Positions 4,868 through 48,566 of a stretch of DNA of 64,000 nucleotides are shown piece after piece. How positions within the stretch are numbered: the first letter of the stretch is position 1; each line of letters opens with the position of its first letter. Made by a program: the position numbers and the translations under genes. Source of the DNA: Lytechinus pictus (Eukaryota); the NCBI RefSeq assembly GCF_037042905.1, contig NC_087245.1, positions 868,001-932,000 on the forward strand. Direction: 5' to 3'. The notes under the pieces are model-generated. The model did no database searches and was not told the DNA's origin. It saw only the letters and a list, made by a program, of their open reading frames with translations.

Positions 4868-5028
4868 TTCTGTTCATCGTAATGAGGAGATCTCTTTAGG
4901 CCTTCATGCTTCAATGTTTCTACATTCTGTAACAACTCAGATGACAGAGGAACAGAAGATGTACTGGCTAAAGGCAACCAAATGCTATACTCTCTTAGGA
5001 ACATACGCCCAGACTGAACTTGGACATG
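4868..5028 (+). CDS. ACOX1: ACOX1 alternative exon 3, copy B (161 nt)
   Basis: CAG acceptor; SVHRNEEISLGLHASMFLHSVTTQMTEEQKMYWLKATKCYTLLGTYAQTELGH; G|GTACAC donor; same length and phases as copy A. Confidence 0.88.
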
Positions 5029-6528: not shown

Positions 6529-6689
6529 GGCTGTACATAAGGCAGAAGAACCAGCCCTTGCCCTCCACTCCACCATGTTCTCACATGCAATCCTCTCTCA
6601 AATGAGTGATGATCAGCATGAAAAATGGCTCAATGCTGCCTTCAACTTCGTCCTTCTCGGAACCTATGCCCAGACAGAGTTAGGCCACG
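6529..6689 (+). CDS. ACOX1: ACOX1 alternative exon 3, copy C (161 nt)
   Basis: Long pyrimidine tract and CAG acceptor; AVHKAEEPALALHSTMFSHAILSQMSDDQHEKWLNAAFNFVLLGTYAQTELGH; G|GTACAA donor; same length and phases. Confidence 0.9.
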
Positions 6690-15069: not shown

Positions 15070-16310
15070 TACCTCAGGTTTCTGAGAAAGGGATGTAGAG
15101 TTTGGGACATTGGTATGAAGATAAGTTGAATGACATGCATCGAGGGATGCAGATCTATGACAAAGTGGTAGAGTGGTTAAGGAAGGTGGATAGGACATTG
15201 ATCCCTGGGAATGCGAAGGTGTGGTGCTGCCATTGTGGGTTGCTGTCACAGATCATGTGGCAACTGCAGGTGTTGGAGGTGGCAGTTTCCAGAGTTGAGA
15301 GGATGCAGCAGAAGATGAACTTGTTCTACTGGAAGTGGTTAGGTGTTCCAAGAATGTTGATGGATTTGGCATTCTTTTGTAGATCTGGAAAGCTAAGGCT
15401 TCCTATGGCATCAGTGGTAGAAGAGTACAAGGCAGGAAAGGTTAGGTTGGTCATGATGATGAGAGAGTGTGAGGATCAGACAGTAGCAGATTCTAGGCCA
15501 CTGATCCGTACAGGGAGAAAATGGAAGGCAGAAGAGGCTGCGGATGAAGCTGTGACGATGGCTAAGTGGAAGGAGATGCGTGGTGCTGTCCAAGTGGGTA
15601 GGAGCGGGGTAGGGTATCATCCTTGCATGAGATGGTACATGTATGAATGTAGGTTGGCAAAAGCTGCACAGCAGGGTGTGCAGGGCGCATGGACTCATTG
15701 GGAAGAGGTGGAGCAGAGGAATGTCTCCTGGGAATAACTCAGGATGATGTCGTCTGGAGCCGTGCACATTAAGATCAGTTCCAACTTTGATGTCCTGCCA
15801 ACGCCAGTGAATTTGAAGAGGTGGGGTTGTGTGGAGCACGACAGCTGCAAGGTTTGCAGGAAGGCAAGCGGGTCGTTAGAGCATGTCCTGTCAGCTTGTG
15901 GAGGGTTATTGCAAGCTGTACATGGAGCCATAACCAGATTTTATTTTAAGGGAGATCGCAGCTTTGGCAAGGGCTGTGGTAGAGGCTATAAAGAAGAATG
16001 GGCCCCCGAGGGTAAGGGGTATCGAGTTGGTCAAGAAGGGGATAATGTGTAGTAAGACTAGGCAGAGACAATGTGTGGGTGGGTTGTTAGCTGCTGCGGA
16101 CGAGTGGGAGATGCGTGTGGATGAGGGGAAGGCATCTTAGTGCTTTCTAGACAATTCACATCTCTTAGTGTCAACGGGGTGCTGTCCAGGTGATTCCAGC
16201 GTAGCACTGGTCAGCCAGGGGGAGGTGTACAGCACTCAAATGACTGAAATATCAGTGAGCTCTGGTGTGCTGCTGATGACCCGTTGACATCTTGTGGAAT
16301 TTAAGATCTT
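15070..16310 (+). mobile_element. 5'-truncated, decayed non-LTR retrotransposon with restriction-like endonuclease (HERO-like clade)
   Basis: Interrupted ORF with VSEKG.*SLGHWY, KWLGVPR, KLRLP, RTGRKWKAEEA, GRSGVG, DVLPTPVNLKRWG, CCHC knuckle CKVC-8x-HVLSAC and GLL...WEMRVD. Clade assigned from recalled motifs, not from a search. Confidence 0.8.
16168..16290 (+). ncRNA. Candidate rearranged (non-circularly permuted) hammerhead ribozyme in the retrotransposon 3' UTR
   Basis: GUA 16227-16229, GAAA 16246-16249 and CUGAUGA 16273-16279, each flanked by complementary strands for stems I, II and III, plus three further helices (see findings). Confidence 0.65.
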
Positions 16311-20704: not shown

Positions 20705-22618
20705 GGGCGGTATTCTGAAAACAGTGTTAGCACAAAAACGGTGTTAGCTATTAACACGATTGGTATTCTTAAAATCGTGGTAGCATGAAAAACACGTGGC
20801 CCAGCTAGGGCCCAAGTGGTTAACACCGCGCAGGTCATGAAATATGCAGTGCGCAACCCCCATACGCAGTGTTAGGGAGGAATATAACACAAAATTTGGT
20901 ATTCTGAAAATGGTGTTAGCAAAATTTTTTTCAAAGATAACACAAACATTTAACACTGCCCTAAGGAGAGGTTAAGTTGGGGAAGACGATGGCTGCACTT
21001 TTTCTAGCAGACAGAAATGTCAACAACATAGACTGGCATATAGCTATCGTGTGGCAGAACTACCAGTAATTTTCTTTATTCCAACTTTATTTTCTCTCTA
21101 CCTTTCTTTCCACTAACAATGATTAAACGTCAATTTCTTTGTCTGGAAAACTGTGAGAGTACCCTTCAAATTCATATATGCTCATATGTTTACTTTTTGC
21201 CATATTAAAAATTAAAGACAAAAAGGAGGGAAATAAAATTGAAAACGTTTAAAAAAAGCAGTACAGCAATTCAAAATCTCTCCCACCAATTTGATAATAT
21301 CTCTATGTTTAGTTAAATGTTTCTTAAAGTGCATGCTTTTTAAATTTTGCATTGCACATCTATTTTTCAAGTTTTCAAAATTATTTGGGGGCAAATAGAT
21401 ATGTTTTCTCCCATGTTTTCATGGGGTATAATCTCCCCCTGCCACCATCGATCGAGGTCTCTTTATTCTGTTATAATTTCGTACTATCTGAAATATTCCA
21501 TTCTTAATTGCCACAATCACCCCTCCCCTACTAGCTCTAACTTTTATTTAGCTGTTATGCGCTTACAAAATGATGTCACAATGCAGCAGGCTTTGTGTCA
21601 CCGCGCGTATGATGATTTTTGTCTCGCCCACCAGAGGTGAAGGCGAGACTTGGGGATCCAAATGTCGTCTGTCGTCCGTCCATCACAAACCTTATGACAC
21701 ATAACTCAACAACTGTAAGTCACTTTTCAACCAAACTTGGATGGTAGATGGACTTGGGGGACCTGCATGTTATGCTGCAGTCGGAGGTCACATGGTAAGG
21801 TCAAAGGTCATTTTCAGGTCAACGTTAAAGTTCACATGCAAGACTCTTAAAACACCTAACTCCACAACCGTAAGTCACTTTTCAATCAAACTTGGATGGT
21901 AGATGGACTTTGGGGACCTGCATGTAATGCTGCAGTTGGAGGTCACATGGTAAGGTCAAAGGTCATTTTCAGGTCAACGTTAAAGTTTACACGCAAAACT
22001 CTCTTATGACACCTAACTCTGCAACCATAAGTCACTTTTCAAACAAACTTGGACGGTCGATGGACTTGGGGAATCTGCATGATATGCTGCAGTCGTAGGT
22101 CACATGGTAAGGTCAAAGGTCATTTTCAGGTCAACGTTAAAGTTTACATGCAAGACTTATGACACCTAACTCCGCAACTGTAAGTCACTTTTGAACCAAA
22201 CTTGGATGGTAGATGTACTTAGGCGACCTGCATGTTATGCTGCAGTCAGAGGTTAAAGGTCATTTTCGGGTCAACATTAAAGTTTACTTGCAAGACTTTT
22301 ATGACAAGTTTTATTCCATCCCAGTCATTTCACAATGAAGTTTCGATACAGTTCTGTTGCGTGCCCTTGCAAATCACGATATTTCTGGTTATTTTCATAA
22401 GTGGGCGAGACACAAAATTGCTTTTGCCTTGTTCCCCTGAAAATTGTGCGCGATCTTTTCTTTAACAGCGCATTTGATTGGATTAAATAGATGCAGAGTG
22501 GGAGGAGCTGAAGATAACATGAAATGAGATAACACGGTTTTCAGAATACCGATTTGGGGGTATGTTAGGGGCGTGTTAAATCAGAGAGATAACACGCTAT
22601 TTTACACCAATACCGCCC
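20705..22618. mobile_element. PIF/Harbinger-like non-autonomous element carrying a nested insertion
   Basis: TIRs GGGCGGTATT / AATACCGCCC; 3-bp TSD CAG on both sides. Confidence 0.65.
21618..22432. mobile_element. Helentron/DINE-1/pearl-like element with about four internal tandem units of about 155 bp
   Basis: Subterminal inverted repeat TGTCTCGCCCAC / GTGGGCGAGACA, short GTCC microsatellite and tandem units containing AGGTCACATGGTAAGGTCAAAGGTCA. Confidence 0.7.
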
Positions 22619-26141: not shown

Positions 26142-26219
26142 GAAATCAAGAATGGCTACTCTTGACGTATTGCCAAGAACAATCCTCCCATGTATCTCAC
26201 CAAAATTGCAATGGTAAAC
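26142..26219 (+). pseudogene. Decayed tandem duplicate of the 3' part of ACOX1 exon 11, including its donor site
   Basis: Reads EIKNGYS*RIAKNNPPMYLTKIAM|GTAAAC versus EIKKGHSQPIAWNNCHMYLIKAAM|GTAAAT in exon 11; ungapped, with an in-frame TGA. Confidence 0.8.
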
Positions 26220-26533
26220 ATTTACTTTAAACTTGAGTGTTTAATATCTCTCATTCTTAATTTTTTGTATGAAATGAAAAGCCAAATGATGTTAAGCATT
26301 TGGCCTTATGAGACAGGTTTGTTTTTCACTACCCATATTCAACTCATAATAATCAGCTCTCTGTGGGCATCACTGGGAAGACAAGATATAACACACAATA
26401 TAAGATATATAAGACAAGGCGTAAATGATGACAAAATTAATACAAAATAAGAAAATTTAAAAAATGATGATCATTAAAGCCACTTTAAAAGTAAATACTA
26501 ATACTTTCCTATTTATTTGCTTGATACACCTAG

Positions 26534-26680
26534 GCCCACTGTCACTTGTACTGTGTGGAGAGCTTCTTTGATGGAGTAAATAGTACTGATGCTTCACAAC
26601 CTGCAGTGGATGCTCTCATGGCTTTGTGTCAGCTCTATGCCATCTTTGGGATCAGCCAAAACAAAGGAGATCTGCTCCAG
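26534..26680 (+). CDS. ACOX1: ACOX1 exon 12 (147 nt)
   Basis: AHCHLYCVESFFDGVNSTDASQPAVDALMALCQLYAIFGISQNKGDLLQ; TAG and GTATGG boundaries. Confidence 0.93.
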
Positions 26681-27455
26681 GTATGGTAGTATAATAAATT
26701 GATTAATGTGGAAGCATTGTGTTTTTTTTACTCTCCTTGAATCAGAGGGTGGTGTCTTTAAATCCCATTGCGGCCGAGCATCCCTTGGCAAGGCGTCAAT
26801 CTACACATTGCCACTCTCCACCCAGGTATGCCTAGAAAAAAAGCTTGAAAACTCTTGTTGTAATACTCCCCAGGGAGTGGTGAAAGTCCAAATATTGTGT
26901 GCAGACAATCCAGGATCCGATGAGTGGGGTAATCATATACCTCTAAACCACCTAGAAACATTGTTCCGATGTAGTAAGCACTATGTATTTGACATGTATA
27001 ATTATTTTGTTATTTGTAATTCTGTAATTCCTGAAGGTTTTCAACAGACTACACTGTTTAGTAGGCAATGGGGTGAAATTTTTTTGATAATTTGCACACA
27101 TTTGAAGAGGTTAAAACATTGAAAATAATAGCTTCCTGCTTCCTTGTGAATTTGTCTGCTCAGAAACAAGATTATTAAAAGGGGAAAGACACTTTGAAAA
27201 CAGCTATGGTATCTTGTAGGGGGATCCAAATCTCTGCCATCAGCCATGTGATTGTAACATAAACAAGCACATGTCACCATTGGCATAATCTAATTTACAC
27301 AACTGCAAAGTTGTTTGATCTCATTCATTCTAATTTACGGATGAAATCAAAATGTTTTCTCAAAATCAAGGAATAAAAGTTTAAATGTGATTTATTTTGG
27401 TCCTAATTCCTCTGAAGCCTTCTTAGCAAATCCTCCATGAAAATATATATTTCAT

Positions 27456-29044
27456 TTTTCTTTGTTTTGGTTTGATATGGTTTCAGGATGGTTATATGAT
27501 TGGTGAGCAGCTAGATATGTTAGAGCGTCAGCTGATAGACCTACTAGCAATCATCAGACCTATTGCTGTAACTCTAGTTGATTTCTATGATATCTAGTAG
27601 TTTTCTTTGTTTTGTTTTGATATGGTTTCAGGATGGTTATATGAATGGTGAGCAGCTAGATATTTTAGAGCGTCAGCTGATAGACCTACTAGCAATCATC
27701 AGACCTATTGCTGTAACTATAGTTGATTTCTATGATATCTAGTAGTTTTCTTTGTTTTGTTTTGATATGGTTTCAGGATGGTTATATGAATGGTGAGCAG
27801 CTAGATATTTTAGAGCGTCAGCTGATAGACCTACTAGCAATCATCAGACCTATTGCTGTAACTATAGTTGATTTCTATGATATCTAGTAGTTTTCTTTGT
27901 TTTGTTTTGATATGGTTTCAGGATGGTTATATGAATGGTGAGCAGCTAGATATTTTAGAGCGTCAGCTGATAGACCTACTAGCAATCATCAGACCTATTG
28001 CTGTAACTATAGTTGATTTCTATGATATCTAGTAGTTTTCTTTGTTTTGTTTTGATATGGTTTCAGGATGGTTATATGAATGGTGAGCAGCTAGATATTT
28101 TAGAGCGTCAGCTGATAGACCTACTAGCAATCATCAGACCTATTGCTGTAACTATAGTTGATTTCTATGATATCTAGTAGTTTTCTTTGTTTTGTTTTGA
28201 TATGGTTTCAGGATGGTTATATGAATGGTGAGCAGCTAGATATGTTAGAGCGTCAGCTGATAGACCTACTAGCAATCATCAGACCTATTGCTGTAACTAT
28301 AGTTGATTTCTATGATATCTAGTAGTTTTCTTTGTTTTGTTTTGATATGGTTTCAGGATGGTTATATGAATGGTGAGCAGCTAGATATGTTAGAGCGTCA
28401 GCTGATAGACCTACTAGCAATCATCAGACCTATTGCTGTAACTATAGTTGATTTCTATGATATCTAGTAGTTTTCTTTGTTTTGTTTTGATATGGTTTCA
28501 GGATGGTTATATGAATGGTGAGCAGCTAGATATTTTAGAGCGTCAGCTGATAGACCTACTAGCAATCATCAGACCTATTGCTGTAACTATAGTTGATTTC
28601 TATGATATCTAGTAGTTTTCTTTGTTTTGTTTTGATATGGTTTCAGGATGGTTATATGAATGGTGAGCAGCTAGATATTTTAGAGCGTCAGCTGATAGAC
28701 CTACTAGCAATCATCAGACCTATTGCTGTAACTATAGTTGATTTCTATGATATCTAGTAGTTTTCTTTGTTTTGTTTTGATATGGTTTCAGGATGGTTAT
28801 ATGAATGGTGAGCAGCTAGATATTTTAGAGCGTCAGCTGATAGACCTACTAGCAATCATCAGACCTATTGCTGTAACTATAGTTGATTTCTATGATATCT
28901 AGTAGTTTTCTTTGTTTTGTTTTGATATGGTTTCAGGATGGTTATATGAATGGTGAGCAGCTAGATATTTTAGAGCGTCAGCTGATAGACCTACTAGCAA
29001 TCATCAGACCTATTGCTGTAACTCTGGTTGATTCTTATGATATC
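27456..29044 (+). repeat. 145-bp tandem array, 11 units, each made of the exon 13 acceptor plus the first 108 coding nt
   Basis: TTTCAG|GATGGT recurs at 27487, 27632 and so on to 28937 (10 x 145). Units are nearly identical; the first ten end in an in-frame TAG. Confidence 0.95.
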
Positions 29045-29143
29045 CCTGATAAGATGCTTTCTTCAGTGCTTGGACGCTATGATGGTAACGTCTATGAGAA
29101 CCTATATGAGTGGGCCAAGAAAGCTCCCCTCAACAAGAAAGAG
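28937..29143 (+). CDS. ACOX1: ACOX1 exon 13 (207 nt; the only complete copy)
   Basis: DGYMNGEQLDILERQLIDLLAIIRPIAVTLVDSYDIPDKMLSSVLGRYDGNVYENLYEWAKKAPLNKKE; CAG and GTAAGC boundaries. Confidence 0.93.
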
Positions 29144-30016
29144 GTAAGCTTGCTAATCATTTATCCCAATTTGTTAGTGTTCTTGTAGATTATATTTAGA
29201 CCACACTTTATGAAGAAAATGAAAAGCTAGTTGGGGAAGAGTCGGATGGTTGGAGTGAGGAGGGAGGATGCTTTAAATCATACAGAATAAACAGAGGTGA
29301 TAAAGGAGATTGCAGAGAGTGTAAAGATGAATCTGGCCACCCCCTATTCCACATGGACAAAATAAGTTACGGGGGTCATTAGGTCAAAGGTCACAGTGGA
29401 CATTTACCTGAAAATATCTCTTTCTGTTGATACCAGTGAAGAACTGTTTTGATGGTTAAAACTTCTGCCATGTATGCTTATTGGATTGACAATGATCTGA
29501 TTATATTTTAGTGTCACAAGGTCAAAGGTCACATATCATTTGAAAATGTTCAAAGTTGCGTGATAATTTCTTGTTTTGGTAGTGGAGGATGCATAGTGGT
29601 TACTGTGTGCAGTCATTAATCCATCTATTTTTTTTCTTTTGGGGGGATTTTTATTTTTTTGTAAAAATGAATTATGCATTTGTCATAGTTGCTTATGAAT
29701 GAATGCAAGAATGGAGGAAACAGAATCACCTCTTAGTGGAATTATAATGTTTTTGAAACATTGAATTTATTTGCAAGTTTCAAAAATTGATGAATGTCAT
29801 TTTTTATGGAAGAGACATTAAATACATTCATGTAATTTGAGATGCATGTAGATTAATCTGATTACTTTTTTTTTGGCCATTTAGTGGTAGGCAAGTATTA
29901 GAAATATTTTAATTAAGATTCATTTTATAATGTAATTGCATGTTATCCATTGTGTACAAACAGTGTAGCATAAACAATCTTAATGTACTTTCACAATTTC
30001 TTTCAATTTTTTCCAG

Positions 30017-30082
30017 GTTCCTGCTGCTTACAAGTACATTGGACCATTTCTTAAGGAGAACATAGCCAATTCAAAGCTCTGA
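30017..30082 (+). CDS. ACOX1: ACOX1 last coding exon 14, ending in PTS1 (SKL)
   Basis: CAG acceptor; VPAAYKYIGPFLKENIANSKL*; C-terminal SKL is the canonical peroxisomal targeting signal 1. Confidence 0.95.
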   Translation, partial: VPAAYKYIGPFLKENIANSKL

Positions 30083-30183
30083 ATCATGTGACCACCAGTA
30101 ATGTATCATGTGACTGTAAGCTCTGAATCATGTGACCACCAGTAATGTATCATGTGACTGTAAGCTCTGAATCATGTGACTGT
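30074..30183 (+). repeat. 44-bp tandem repeat (about 2.5 copies) spanning the ACOX1 stop codon
   Basis: AAGCTCTGAATCATGTGAC... starts at 30074, 30118 and 30162. Confidence 0.9.
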
Positions 30184-43025: not shown

Positions 43026-46000
43026 AGCAAGGTTGGCGAGTTGTACGCGAGCTGCGCAAGCTCTAACTCGCCTTAACTCGCACAAGCTCGCGTGAAATTT
43101 ACATTTTTTCTGGAATTTGCTTGAGTGACAACAGACTCAACATCGAGTTCACTACGCTCGCTGTACGAGTGAACCGAGCGCGAAACGAGTCAGATCGAGC
43201 TTAGTATGAGTTGCAGTGACCTTTACACGACTTAAATCGAGCTATGAACGAGTTATCAAGATTTTGTTACGAGTGATAAGAGTTTCGTACGACCAAGGGT
43301 CGAAAATGCACATTTTTGGCACTCAAAGATGGATGCCGGCGGCGGCGGCGTCAACACCAATTTTTAACCGAAGGTAAAGTTTTTGAAATGACATCATAAC
43401 TTAGAAAATATATGAACCTAGTTCATGAAACTTGGACATAAGGTTATTAAAGTATTATTGAACATACTGCTTGAGTTTCAAGTCACATGACTAAGGTCAA
43501 AGGTCATTTAGGGTCAATGGACTTTGGCCAATTGGGGGTATTTGTTGAATGCCATTATAACTTTGAAAGTTTATGAATCTGATTCATAAAACTTGGACAA
43601 AAGAGTAATCAAGTATCACTGAACATCTCATGCGAGTTTCAGGTCACATGACCAAAATCAAAGGTCATTTAAGGTCATTGAACTTTGGCCATTTTGGAGA
43701 TTATTATTAGATTGCTGTCATAACTTTCAAAATTTAGATACAGTTTTAAAAATTTGGATATAGGGGTAATCAAGTATAACTGACAAGTCTTATAGGTCAC
43801 ATGGGTCCCGTAACACAAAGGTTAGCGATTAATCGTACGCTTGATTCTACGATTGATTGTACATTGTAGCCAATGGAATCAATCGTAGAAAAATGTTCTA
43901 CGATCATTGCTAAGCTTTGGTTTACGGGCCAATGATCAAGGTCAAATTCAAAAGTTGCAAAATGACACAATATTGAAAGTCACTGTTCTTTTTCCGTGGT
44001 GATGAGTTTCTCAGCGGTTTCTTTTAATTGTTTTCATGCACCTTAACATTAAAATGGAATCATACACACCTCTGCACAAGCAAACACATAACAAACAAAC
44101 AAGCCATCACTACATAAACCACAACAAAACATAAAATATGAAGAAGCAGAATTGATTTTCATCTCTATTGACACTGACAAAAGAATCATGTTCTGTATTG
44201 ACCCTTCATGACTATTTCTGCTCCTTTTGCAGCTTTTCAATTCAGACCTCATCAAACTATTTTGAATTTTGCTCATTTTTTTTATGGCATGATCATAACA
44301 AGCATGGTATCATTTTAAAGAGAATCAAATGATCTTTTGAAAGATATCAAATATCTATTGTGTAAAATTTGGAGTTGGGAGAAATTAATGGCCAAACTCA
44401 GATTTCCAAACTTTTTTTGCTCGTTTTGCAGCTTTTCAATTCAGACTTCATCCAACACTTTTGAATCCTGCTCTTTTCATGATGGCATGATCATAACAAG
44501 CATGGTATTATTGTAAAGAAAATTGAATGATCTTTTAAATGATGTCAAATATGCATTGTGTAAAATTTGGAGTTGGGAGAAATTAATGGCCAAACTCAGA
44601 TTTCCAAACTTTTTTTGAGGGGTTTATATGTGGGAAAATATAGATCACTGGACATTTATCATTCAGCTGGCATGTCAATGAGCACTTGCAACGCACTCGG
44701 AATGGACTCATAGCAAGGTTTCCACTTTGGCGAGTTGGAGTTGCGAGTCATACGCGAGCTGCGCGAGCTCTAACTCGCCTTAGCTCGCACAAGCTCGCGT
44801 GAAATTTACATTTTTCCCTGGAATTTGCTTGAGTGACAAACGACTCAACATCGAGTTCACTACGCTCGTTGTACGAGTGAACCGAGCGCGAAACGAGTCA
44901 GGCCGAGCTTAGTATGAGTTGCGGTGACCTTTATACGACTTAAAGCGAGCTATGAACGAGTTATAAAGATTTTGTTACGAGTGATAAGAGTTTCATACGA
45001 CCTAGGGGTGGGAAATGCACATTTTTGGCACTCAAAGATGGATGCCGGCGGAGGGGGCGTCAACACCAAATCTTAACCGAAGGTTAAGTTTTTGAAATGG
45101 CATCATAACTGAGAAAGTATTTGGACCTAGTTCATGAAACTTTACCATAAGGTTTATCAAGCATTACAAAATATTCTTTTCGAGTTTCAGGTCACAAGAC
45201 CAAGGTCAGAGGTCATTTATGGTCAATGAACGTAGACCATGTTTAGGGAATCAACATCAAAGTCTTAACCTACGGTTAAGTTTTTGAAATGTCATCATAA
45301 CTTAGAAAATATATGAACCTAGTTCATGAAACGTGGACATAAGGTTATTAAAGTATATAAACATCCTGCTTGAGTTTCAAGTCACATGACTAAGGTCAAT
45401 TAGGGTCAATGGACTTTGGCCAATTGGGGTATTTGTTAAATTAACATTATAACTTTGAAAGTTTATGAATCTGATTCATGAAACTTGAACATAAGAGTAA
45501 TCAGGTATCACTAAACATCCTGTGCGGATATCAGGTCACATGTCCAAGGTCAAAGGTCAATGAACTTTAGTGATGTTCGGGTGATCTGTTGAATTACCAT
45601 CATAACTTTAAAAGTTTATAGATCTGATTCATGAATCTTAGATATAAGAGTAATCAAGTATTCCTGAACATCCTGTGCGAGTTTCAGGTCACATGACGAA
45701 GGTCAAAGGTCATTTATGGTCAATAAACTTTGGCCATGTTGGGGGTATTTGTTGAATTACCATCATAACTTTGAAAGCTTATGGATATGATTCATCAACT
45801 TGGATATTAGAGTAGTCAAGTATCACCGAACATTTCATGTCAGTTTCAGGTCACATGACCAAAGTCAAAGGTCATTTAAGGTTATTGAACTTTGGCCATT
45901 TTGGAGATTAATACTATATTACTGTCATAACTTTCAAAGTTTAGATACAGTTTATAAAATGTGGATATAGGGGTAATCTAGTATCACTGACAAGTCTTAG

Positions 46001-48566
46001 GTCAAATGATAAAGGTCAAATGTCATTTATTGTAAATGAACGTAGTATTGTATCAATGTATGAATGGTGTTTTTGTGAATAATTATTTTACAATAGTTTT
46101 CAGAGTCAGCACTACTTCTATATTGGATAGCGTGATGCAGAGGCGCTCCACTTGGACCTTAATTGTCCAGTTTGATGTCTTGTTTTTTTACCTTGGCTCT
46201 GCTCGTCATTGACCTCCTCTTCCGTTTCAATTGTCTCTTCCTGCACTTCTTCTACCCTTGTTTGAATGTCATCTTCTTTCGCTGTTTCCCTATCTGAATG
46301 GCCACAACTCTTGGATCTTTTGGATCGAGGCATATTTCTCTCCTTATTTGTTGAAAGTTGTAATAATGCAGTGGAAACAGCCTTTTTAAAAGTACGTGTA
46401 CATTGCGTGGGTCAGTTAAAATGTGCTCTCACTTTAAAATAACTCCTCAAAAAAAGTTTGGAAATCCGACTTTAATCAAAACTCCCTCCTCAGTTTTAGT
46501 AAATATCAATTGTTATTAATATCAATGAATAGATCATTTAAGTGTCTTTAAATGATACCCTACATGATATGATTATGGTTCACATGGAGGTGCAGTGCCT
46601 TGAAATGTAGGGCAAGGTCAAAAATCAAAATTAAGTTGCAAAGAGACACAGTATTGAAAGTCACTGTTCCTTTGATGAGTGAGTATTTTAAGCGGTTTCT
46701 TTTGAGTTTGATCGGTAATCCCGCCTCGGTTTTAGTAAATATCAAGTTGAATTAATATCAATGAATAGATCATTTAAGTGTCTTTAAATGATACCCTACA
46801 TGATATGATTATGGCTCACATGGAGGTGCAGTGCCTTGAAATGCGGGGCAAGGTCAAAATTCAAAATTTGCAAAATGACACAATATTGAAAGTCACTGTT
46901 CTTTTCTTCCATGATGATGAGTGAGATTCTCAGCAATTGTTTTCATGCACCTTAATATCAACATTCAAATGGAATCAAACACACCTCTGCACAAGCAAAC
47001 ACACAACAAACAAACATAAACCACAACAAAACATTATGAAATGAAAAAGCAGGGGTTTGATTTGAATGGATTTTCATCTTTATTGACACAGACAAAAACA
47101 TCATGTTCTGTATTGACCCTTCATGATTACTTATGCTCGTTTTGCAGCTTTTTACTTGAGACCTCATCCAACACTTATTAATTTTGTTCTTTTTTGATGG
47201 CATGATCATAACAAGCATGGGATCATTTAAAAGAGAATCAAATGATCTTTTGAAAGATATCAAATATGCATTGTGTAAAATTCGGAGTCGGGATAAATTA
47301 ATGGCCAAACTCAGATTTCCAAACTTTTTTGCTCGTTTTGCAGCTTTTCAATTCAGACTTTATCCAACACTTTTGAATCCTGCTCTTTTCGTGATGGCAT
47401 GATCATAACAAGCATGGTATCATTGTAAAGAAAATTGAATGACCTTTTAAATGATGTCAAATATGCAATGTGTAAATTTTGGAGTTGGGAGAAATTAATG
47501 GCCAAACTCAGATTTCAAACTTTTTTTGAGGGGTTTATATGTGGGGAAAATATAGATCACTGGACATTTATCATTCAGCTGGCATGCCTCTGAGCTATTG
47601 CAACGCACTCGGAATAAACTCATACGAAACTCGCTGTAACTCGGGGTGCTCGATCTAAAGTCGCGCTAATCTCGTGGGCACCTCCATTTGACTCGTAAAA
47701 CGATCGCAATGCTCGTATATCGCTCTTGAAAACTCGGAACGCACTCGCGTATACTCAGATGTGGCGAGTTATTACGAGTTATTGTGAGTTTATCTCGAGC
47801 TTCTTACGAGTTATTGCGAGTGCTGCGAGTATATAACGAGTTTAGGTGAGTTCAGCACGAGTTACAGCGAGTTAGCAAAATTTTTGAACATGTTCAAAAA
47901 TTTTGAAACAGCTCACGACTTCAAGGAGAGTTGTCCCGAGCTTGAACGAGCTCCGCCGAGCTCTGCCGAGTTGTCGCGAGTTATCCCGAGTTTCATGGTG
48001 AGCTTTATGCGAGTTATCGCGAGTGCCTCATTTTGGCAACTCGCTATAACTCGCCATAACTCGCGATGTTAACTCGCCAAAGTGGAAACCTTGCTATACG
48101 AAACTCGATGTAACTCGGGGTGCTCGATCTAAAGTCGCGCTAATCTCGTGGGCACCAGTCCTCCACTTGACTCGTAAAACGATCGCAATGCTCGCATTTC
48201 GCTCTTGAAAACTCGGAACGCACTCGCGTATACTCAGATGTGGCGAGTTATCACGAGTTATCGCAAGTTTATCTCGAGCTTCTTACGAGTTATATCGAGT
48301 ACTGCGAGTATATAAGGAGTTTAGGTGAGTTCAGCACGAGTTACAGCGAGTTAGCAAAATTTTTGAAAATGTTCAAAAATTTTGAAACTGCTCACGACTT
48401 CAAGGAGAGTTGTCCCGAGCTTGAACGAGCTCCACCGAGCCATGCCGAGTTGTCGCGAGTTATCCCGAGTTTCATGGTGAGCTTTATGTGAGTTATCGCG
48501 AGTGCCTCATTTTGGCAACTCGCTATAACTCGCCATAACTCGCAATGTTAACTCGCCAAAGTGGAC
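43026..48566. mobile_element. Outer, partly decayed copy of a CGAG-rich TIR DNA transposon, interrupted by a second copy of itself
   Basis: 43026-43400 repeats 44713-45100 and 48097-48566 repeats 47622-48090; both terminal repeats are partly deleted. Confidence 0.8.
44713..48094. mobile_element. Inner copy of the same TIR element (superfamily uncertain), containing an AGGTCA-rich tandem array
   Basis: 24-bp perfect TIR GCAAGGTTTCCACTTTGGCGAGTT / AACTCGCCAAAGTGGAAACCTTGC flanked by TA. Confidence 0.85.

Follow-up and report, generated by a model that had tools for sequence, protein, structure and literature searches.

The stretch of Lytechinus pictus DNA analysed in this work (the window; 64,000 nt of contig NC_087245.1, positions 868,001 to 932,000 of the forward strand) carries exons 2–14 of one gene between its positions 1 and 30082. 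Judging from the ACOX domain, the orthologous exon series and the C-terminal SKL of the predicted product, this gene is that of peroxisomal acyl-CoA oxidase 1 (ACOX1). The homologue search scored 29 proteins among 78 candidates, and the exons in the window agree with the RefSeq ACOX1 isoforms of L. pictus, except for mismatches at places where the alignments overrun the exon edges. The exon numbers used here follow an earlier sequence-only reading of the locus, which spoke of an exon 13; this number holds if one coding exon precedes the window and if the three alternative exon 3s are counted once. Exon 12 (26534–26680, forward strand, as are all the exons, repeat copies and splice signals described below) was located by tblastn of homologues and by splice motifs, and is followed by the donor CAG/GTATGG at 26681. 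The functional exon 13 (28937–29143) has 207 nt and encodes 69 residues of the ACOX C-terminal domain, an assignment supported by the match of its product to PF01756 (94.5 bits, with a cut-off of 22.1), by its similarity to the acyl-CoA oxidase structure 1IS2 (E 3.6e-21) and by RNA joints. The coding part of exon 14 (30017–30082), identified by homology, splice motifs and RNA, ends in S-K-L-stop; we take this ending to be a peroxisomal targeting signal 1, and an SKL or AKL terminus is present in 26 of 28 homologues.

Several other repeated elements were observed in and around this gene. Exon 3 exists in three versions of 161 nt and identical phases (1545–1705, 4868–5028 and 6529–6689), each of which is used by one named L. 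variegatus isoform (P0033, P0002 and P0031); vertebrates possess two mutually exclusive versions of this exon. An old, degenerate copy of the 3' half of exon 11 and its donor lies 60 nt into intron 11 (26142–26223), with 71% identity over 84 nt (E 5e-6) and a score of 70, the maximum in 500 shuffles being 46; by its sequence, this relic is a decayed donor-side mirage, i.e., a minisatellite that overlaps an exon boundary of its host gene. At the end of the gene, a perfect 44-bp repeat of 2.4 copies (30074–30180) extends from the last two codons and the stop into the 3' UTR; it is present in the L. pictus RNA run X5, and the sister species shows a variant form of it (DNA run X11). Intron 4 contains stop-free stretches of 212 and 104 codons (15099–16049) that by eye resemble the remains of mobile elements. 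Repeats of 153–162 bp rich in AAGGTCA occur at 21691–22253, 29370–29540 and 43387–45943, and they form an interspersed family, since reads and contigs of other loci pile up on the piece located in intron 13. Longer units repeated in tandem (198 bp x 2, 197 bp x 2 and 479 bp x 2) lie downstream of the gene, at 44211–48565.

The main subject of this study is a tandem array placed across the boundary between intron 12 and exon 13. Tandem Repeats Finder delimits it in the assembly at 27456–29044, with a period of 145, 11.0 copies, 99% matches and a score of 3108, which is far beyond chance and agrees with the eleven 145-bp copies described in the sequence-only reading. The unit had been divided there into 37 nt plus 108 coding nt; the lengths are right, but only 31 of the 37 nt derive from the end of the intron, and the other six form a junction that is absent from both native flanks, so that the unit consists of 31 nt of intron, the first 108 coding nt of exon 13 and this 6-nt junction. 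The array thus presents 11 acceptors spaced by 145 bp, with exon starts at 27487+145n. As had been stated, copies 1–10 encode 36 codons and then stop, here with TAG TAG; the last 99 nt of the exon are missing from them. The first junction (TAGTAG, two in-frame stops) lies at 27595–27600 and recurs after each of copies 1–10. Copy 11 (28906–29044, exon start at 28937) contains the real acceptor and the first 108 nt of exon 13, and it alone remains open through the 207-nt exon to the donor GAG/GTAAGC at 29144, as the earlier reading held; splicing of the intron that begins there was seen in RNA.

The copies are not equivalent. Copy 1 (27456–27600), the edge decoy, is composed of 31 nt of intron, 108 coding nt and TAGTAG, and shows the private bases G15 and T45 together with the ancestral G64 and C119. 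The inner decoys, copies 2–10 (27601–28905), all carry A119, A121, T129 and C130, end in TAGTAG and are identical to one another except for G64 in copies 6 and 7. Copy 11 equals the majority of the inner decoys in its 5' part and is ancestral in its 3' part. It follows that the bases proposed earlier as diagnostic of decoys are valid for copies 2–10 and fail for copy 1, which has C at unit position 119 as copy 11 does. Likewise, the acceptors of copies 2–11 are indeed identical, and the idea of ten equally good decoy sites applies to nine of them, given that copy 1 differs from the real acceptor at one base of the tract; this copy also retains the native intron upstream of its acceptor. Regarding the junction, its six bases, taken together with the preceding C, match in reverse complement a 7-mer located at unit position 86, and the chance of such a nearby 7-nt match is approximately 0.06, which makes a templated inverted origin only suggestive; the alignment of the junction also shows an in-register microhomology of 4 nt, and the junction loosely resembles the native continuation, so that more than one origin may be considered. 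A search of metagenome contigs for the junction pattern gave 0 matches, which is uninformative for an animal gene.

Seven positions of the unit are variable (15, 45, 64, 119, 121, 129 and 130). Judged by a contig of the sister species and by the RNA of the same species, the ancestral states are A45, G64, C119, G121, C129 and T130; T15 is probably ancestral as well, and one of the 8 differences of the sister contig is unplaced. Although the copies have departed from the ancestral exon by six mutational events, the inner ones vary at a single site, from which it is concluded that the history of the array had at least two steps. Three derived bases, counted as two events, are common to all ten decoys; A119 was added in copies 2–10, two changes are private to copy 1, and T64 is shared by 7 of the 9 inner copies with the working exon. 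This last site corresponds to position 28969, where the functional exon of the window has the derived T (Ile), while all the RNA aligned and the sister species have G (Met), and proteins P0002 and P0003 have Met. This position is variable among 28 homologues (Q in 19, M in 5, another residue or a gap in 4).

Each decoy lineage accumulated 4 events in 139 nt, that is 2.9% (95% Poisson range 0.8–7.4%); for reference, the two species differ by 4 changes in 46.7 synonymous sites (8.6%, summed over both lineages). Private change of about 3% argues that the founder is not very young, barring changes made together in repair; the founding duplication was therefore either old or the product of error-prone repair in which the changes arose together. 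A cluster near the junction, where 3 of the 6 events fall within 21 of the 139 nt (p 0.048, interval picked post hoc), is a weak signal. On the other hand, the inner expansion either took place or was homogenised recently, and it is to this stage that the earlier description of the array as very young can be applied. A variable copy number, which the same reading had proposed, is plausible. According to the history that we favour, one partial duplication with a 6-nt junction would have founded the array, point changes would then have accumulated in the dead copy, and expansion and homogenisation would have followed via unequal crossing-over or conversion; through the same exchange one base (Met to Ile) would have entered, or left, the working exon within its 5' half. 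T64 either passed from the decoys to the working exon, a route that requires no reversion, or arose in the working exon, with copies 6 and 7 converted back. Four of the five coding changes in the copies are non-synonymous, and two of these hit columns where every one of the 28 homologues has L or, respectively, S/A.

The splicing signals discussed in what follows are candidates from motif scans, for which the branch-point and donor consensus motifs were taken from general knowledge. A putative branch point that conforms to the consensus yUnAy is TTCAT at 27451–27455, with its A at -33 from the acceptor of copy 1. The duplicated unit begins two bases past this A, and only copy 1 retains the candidate, which is absent before the real exon; this agrees with the earlier suggestion that the branch point of the real exon probably falls within sequence derived from the repeat. 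The AG-free zone before the real acceptor is shortened from 58 to 29 nt, within the range of the gene (21 to >78), and substitute branch-point candidates for copy 11 are present at -42, -51 and -12. In addition, each copy contains a putative cryptic donor, ATG/GTGAGC, at unit position 48 (27645–27653 in copy 2), located 16 nt into the exon and 161 nt past the acceptor of the preceding copy. It matches 7 of 9 consensus positions and its predicted duplex (-8.1 kcal/mol, compared with -9.6 for the real donor of exon 13) is stronger than those of 8 of the 14 real donors scored in the gene; in the RNA seen it is read through. By motif, acceptor and cryptic donor define potential 161-nt pseudo-exons that hold stops, and the natural test of exon definition that the sequence-only reading saw in the array is less clean, since a consensus-like donor follows each decoy acceptor at this distance; comparable natural cases, moreover, have been published.

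Use of any decoy acceptor would truncate the protein before the SKL, as was proposed, with loss of this signal and of the last 54 residues, 24 of which are conserved in ≥90% of 28 homologues. Joined to the real donor, the decoy acceptors would give exons of 352–1657 nt, with stops 243–1548 nt before the last junction. Nonsense-mediated decay follows a 50–55 nt rule in mammals, and under this rule, which may differ in urchins, decoy transcripts are expected to decay. The unit contains 0 GGG and 7 TAG trinucleotides, versus 4 over the corresponding span of copy 11; that these trinucleotides act as silencers is speculation. RNA folding of three acceptor/exon stretches was unremarkable (z-scores of 0.59, -0.08 and 0.32), and a choice of acceptor based on structure is unsupported by these values. 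In the mechanism that we propose, the last acceptor would be chosen since it alone pairs with an authentic donor over an intact 207-nt exon, a substitute branch point in repeat sequence (-42, -51 or -12) would serve the real exon, and any transcripts using decoys would be cleared by nonsense-mediated decay.

Four of 23 sequencing runs were aligned to the segment 28875–30117, which covers the last junction and copy 11 as well as intron 13 and exon 14, with approximately 6% of each raw run read; three of them are same-species RNA (X5, X21 and X22) and one is sister-species DNA (X11). The joint between exon 12 and the start of exon 13 was found in 8 reads of X21, 4 reads of X22 and one contig of X5, and the joint between exons 13 and 14 in 2 reads, 3 reads and the same X5 contig, respectively; the excess of the first joint over the second (12 versus 5) is not significant (p 0.14) and was not used. 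Normal splicing of exons 12, 13 and 14 is thus present in three same-species runs, on the 28969-G allele only: this position is G in 9 of 9 and 6 of 6 RNA reads and in the X5 contig, as it is in the X11 contig, whereas the window has T. At an exon depth of approximately 3–8, 0 of 15 RNA reads carry the T allele, and the RNA may for this reason stem from haplotypes other than that of the window. No decoy base and no go-back joint within the exon is among those listed for the four runs, in which variants are listed from 3 reads upwards. The same-species runs have zero depth over the junction, but the unique intron depth is also zero, so these runs cannot tell whether the animals carry the array. 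Four readings are compatible with these data: the array is absent from the RNA animals; it is present with an unconverted real exon, and the decoys are skipped; the array allele is silent; or the T of the window is a consensus error. In the sister species, one 410-nt contig of X11 aligns to 28909–29171, beginning at base 124 of the contig, and neither a second piece nor a joint is listed for it, which indicates a single copy; the bases of this contig encode the residues of the L. variegatus protein P0002.

The RefSeq isoforms X3–X5 (559 aa), three of the five L. pictus isoforms seen, end in decoys. Nevertheless, only three distinct decoy proteins are possible, and RNA with A45 and G64 matches copies 6 and 7 perfectly over the first 87 nt of the exon, with one mismatch to copy 11; shorter read overhangs tie among copies. 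Mapping alone can therefore yield all three decoy proteins, and these isoforms, which may be mapping artefacts, were rejected as evidence of decoy use. Among 12 candidate short proteins, 0 spanned exon 12 and the end of a decoy. The five L. pictus RefSeq isoforms (P0030, P0032 and P0034–P0036) begin 69 residues later than those of L. variegatus (613 or 559 versus 682 aa); P0001 carries the full N-terminus, which suggests a problem of assembly or annotation upstream of the window. P0001 itself is a separately annotated 831-aa model with two exon-3 versions in series and a frameshifted exon 14 that lacks the SKL. It joins copy 1 to the junction before copy 11, and at least three copies are needed in its source. 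As a real isoform it was rejected on account of its weak donor (5/9 consensus, -1.3 kcal/mol) and its frameshifted last exon; it was probably predicted from a different sequence version.

The reading that we consider probable is that the array is a genuine mirage minisatellite that arose as a by-product of local duplication and affects the gene little or not at all. The variant pattern is nested and the edge copy is the least homogenised, and the same gene shows two further duplications at exon edges, the exon 11 relic and the 3' UTR array; against it count the loss of the native branch-point candidate, the cryptic donors of fair strength that follow the decoys, the three RefSeq isoforms that end in decoys and the 0 of 15 reads with the exon-13 allele of the window. 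That the array exists at all is very likely, because a novel junction with nested shared substitutions would not be expected from read collapse or stutter. An error of assembly or consensus, in whole or in part (a wrong copy number, or a T that polishing had carried over from the decoys to 28969), is accordingly judged improbable, even though no same-species DNA run was among the 23 runs, all the RNA has G at 28969, and a mis-assembled mirage is reported in a draft genome in the part of PMC3087553 that was available. The exon 14 frameshift of the P0001 source relative to the window does show that versions of this sequence contain indel errors; nonetheless, the residues of copies 1 and 11 are the same in P0001, though possibly from the same reads, and other runs confirm the 44-bp array close by. 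If only the T were a polishing error, the array may have gone to fixation in the species, and the skipping of the decoys would then be shown by the RNA.

While the mirage is probably harmless, the base exchange, the lost branch-point candidate and the poison exons together make a leaky allele conceivable. The array would then represent a segregating haplotype that harms its own gene, by a missense overwrite and by lower output: decoy 1, which alone keeps the native branch-point candidate, or the 161-nt poison exons delimited by the cryptic donor would be used, and the transcripts would be degraded. We regard this, the hypomorphic allele of the sequence-only reading, as rather unlikely and as unsupported by the present data. 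A silenced allele would give the 0 of 15 T-allele reads, and a splice-site VNTR of CBS is reported, in a cited title, to accompany reduced activity; however, other haplotypes explain the missing T more simply, none of the decoy bases or go-back joints is among those listed for the four runs, and the published mirages are reported without disturbance of splicing in the accessible text of PMC3087553 and PMC3902484. A selected decoy switch, which would tune the mRNA by decay or make an SKL-less extraperoxisomal enzyme, is very improbable. Isoforms X3–X5 end exactly in decoys and the gene already has duplicated alternative exons, the three exon 3s; but the array is absent from the sister-species contig, the coding changes of the copies are mostly non-synonymous and fall in two cases on columns of invariant type, truncation drops strongly conserved residues, and the better fit of A45/G64 RNA to copies 6 and 7 than to copy 11 means that mapping can create such isoforms.

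The mirage reading extends these minisatellites, a kind already known from lancelets, to an echinoderm. What is particular here is the missense base exchanged with the working exon, the branch-point candidate left behind at a decoy and the latent 161-nt poison exons. The importance is modest and lies in that such arrays can exchange bases with a working exon; the T/G site at 28969 offers, besides, a built-in allele marker in a laboratory sea urchin, and the locus is an annotation trap, given that three of the five RefSeq isoforms end in decoys and may be mapping artefacts. Were the allele leaky after all, it would give a mirage whose cost can be measured, of a sort not reported in the available portions of the mirage papers cited, as well as an in vivo test of the choice of the last of eleven acceptors.

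The literature search, of incomplete coverage, found no echinoderm mirage minisatellite, nothing on urchin ACOX1 among the 12 of 26 matches listed, and nothing on the assembly method of the L. pictus reference. Three of the six defining features of a mirage are found here and none is contradicted: the repeats run head-to-tail across an intron–exon boundary of the host, the acceptor is kept in 11 of 11 units, and the inner units are homogenised, the edges less so (copy 1, and copy 11 in its 5' part only). The closest likeness is with the mirage of the amphioxus globin gene BflGb6, which, in the portion of PMC3087553 available, comprises tandem copies of an intron end and exon start of 150–160 bp, with 6 and 3 units in two haplotypes, 81–100% identity, concerted evolution that excludes the boundary units, and RT-PCR that suggests undisturbed splicing. 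Mirages of the amphioxus Adh and troponin C genes are described likewise in the accessible part of PMC3902484, and somatic instability is reported for that of Adh3 (as related in the passages seen of PMC3087553 and PMC3902484). As in the BflGb6 text available, the urchin array repeats the 3' end of an intron together with the 5' portion of the following exon in tandem, with the real exon last, units of similar size (145 versus 150–160 bp), splice signals kept and inner units evolving in concert. It differs from that account in its echinoderm host, in its 11 units (3–6 in BflGb6), the inner ones of which are nearly identical (one site, versus 81–100%), in the two stops from the 6-nt junction that end each decoy, and in that homogenisation with the array reaches into the working exon over its 5' half, a boundary of the type excluded in BflGb6.

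A second comparison can be made with the human CBS variant c.844_845ins68, which, according to the parts of PMC2630376 and PMC1802585 available, has two identical 3' splice sites, of which the distal one is used with normal mRNA, and a dead upstream copy whose missense change was proposed to enter working alleles by gene conversion. Both cases, as far as these sources go, share a duplicated intron/exon junction and a dead upstream copy with a missense change; CBS has two sites 68 bp apart and the urchin eleven, 145 bp apart, and the choice of the distal site in CBS is described there as promoted by G runs between the sites, an element without counterpart in the urchin unit (0 GGG), so that the two are alike in outline only. 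Within the same gene, the exon 3 versions are also local tandem exon duplicates, but they are whole, mutually exclusive exons with their own donors and open frames, while the exon 13 copies are partial and stop-ended. Finally, the 37-bp VNTR in intron 7 of F7, whose pseudo-sites are functional but silent and which was presented as a natural model of splice-site choice (available part of PMC1557585), and the 31-bp VNTR of CBS, c.1444_1467+7(16_21), a multi-copy minisatellite that repeats a splice site (available part of PMC2630376), are, as described in these portions, mirror images of the urchin array: they repeat a donor and the first site wins, whereas the urchin array repeats an acceptor and the last one must win.
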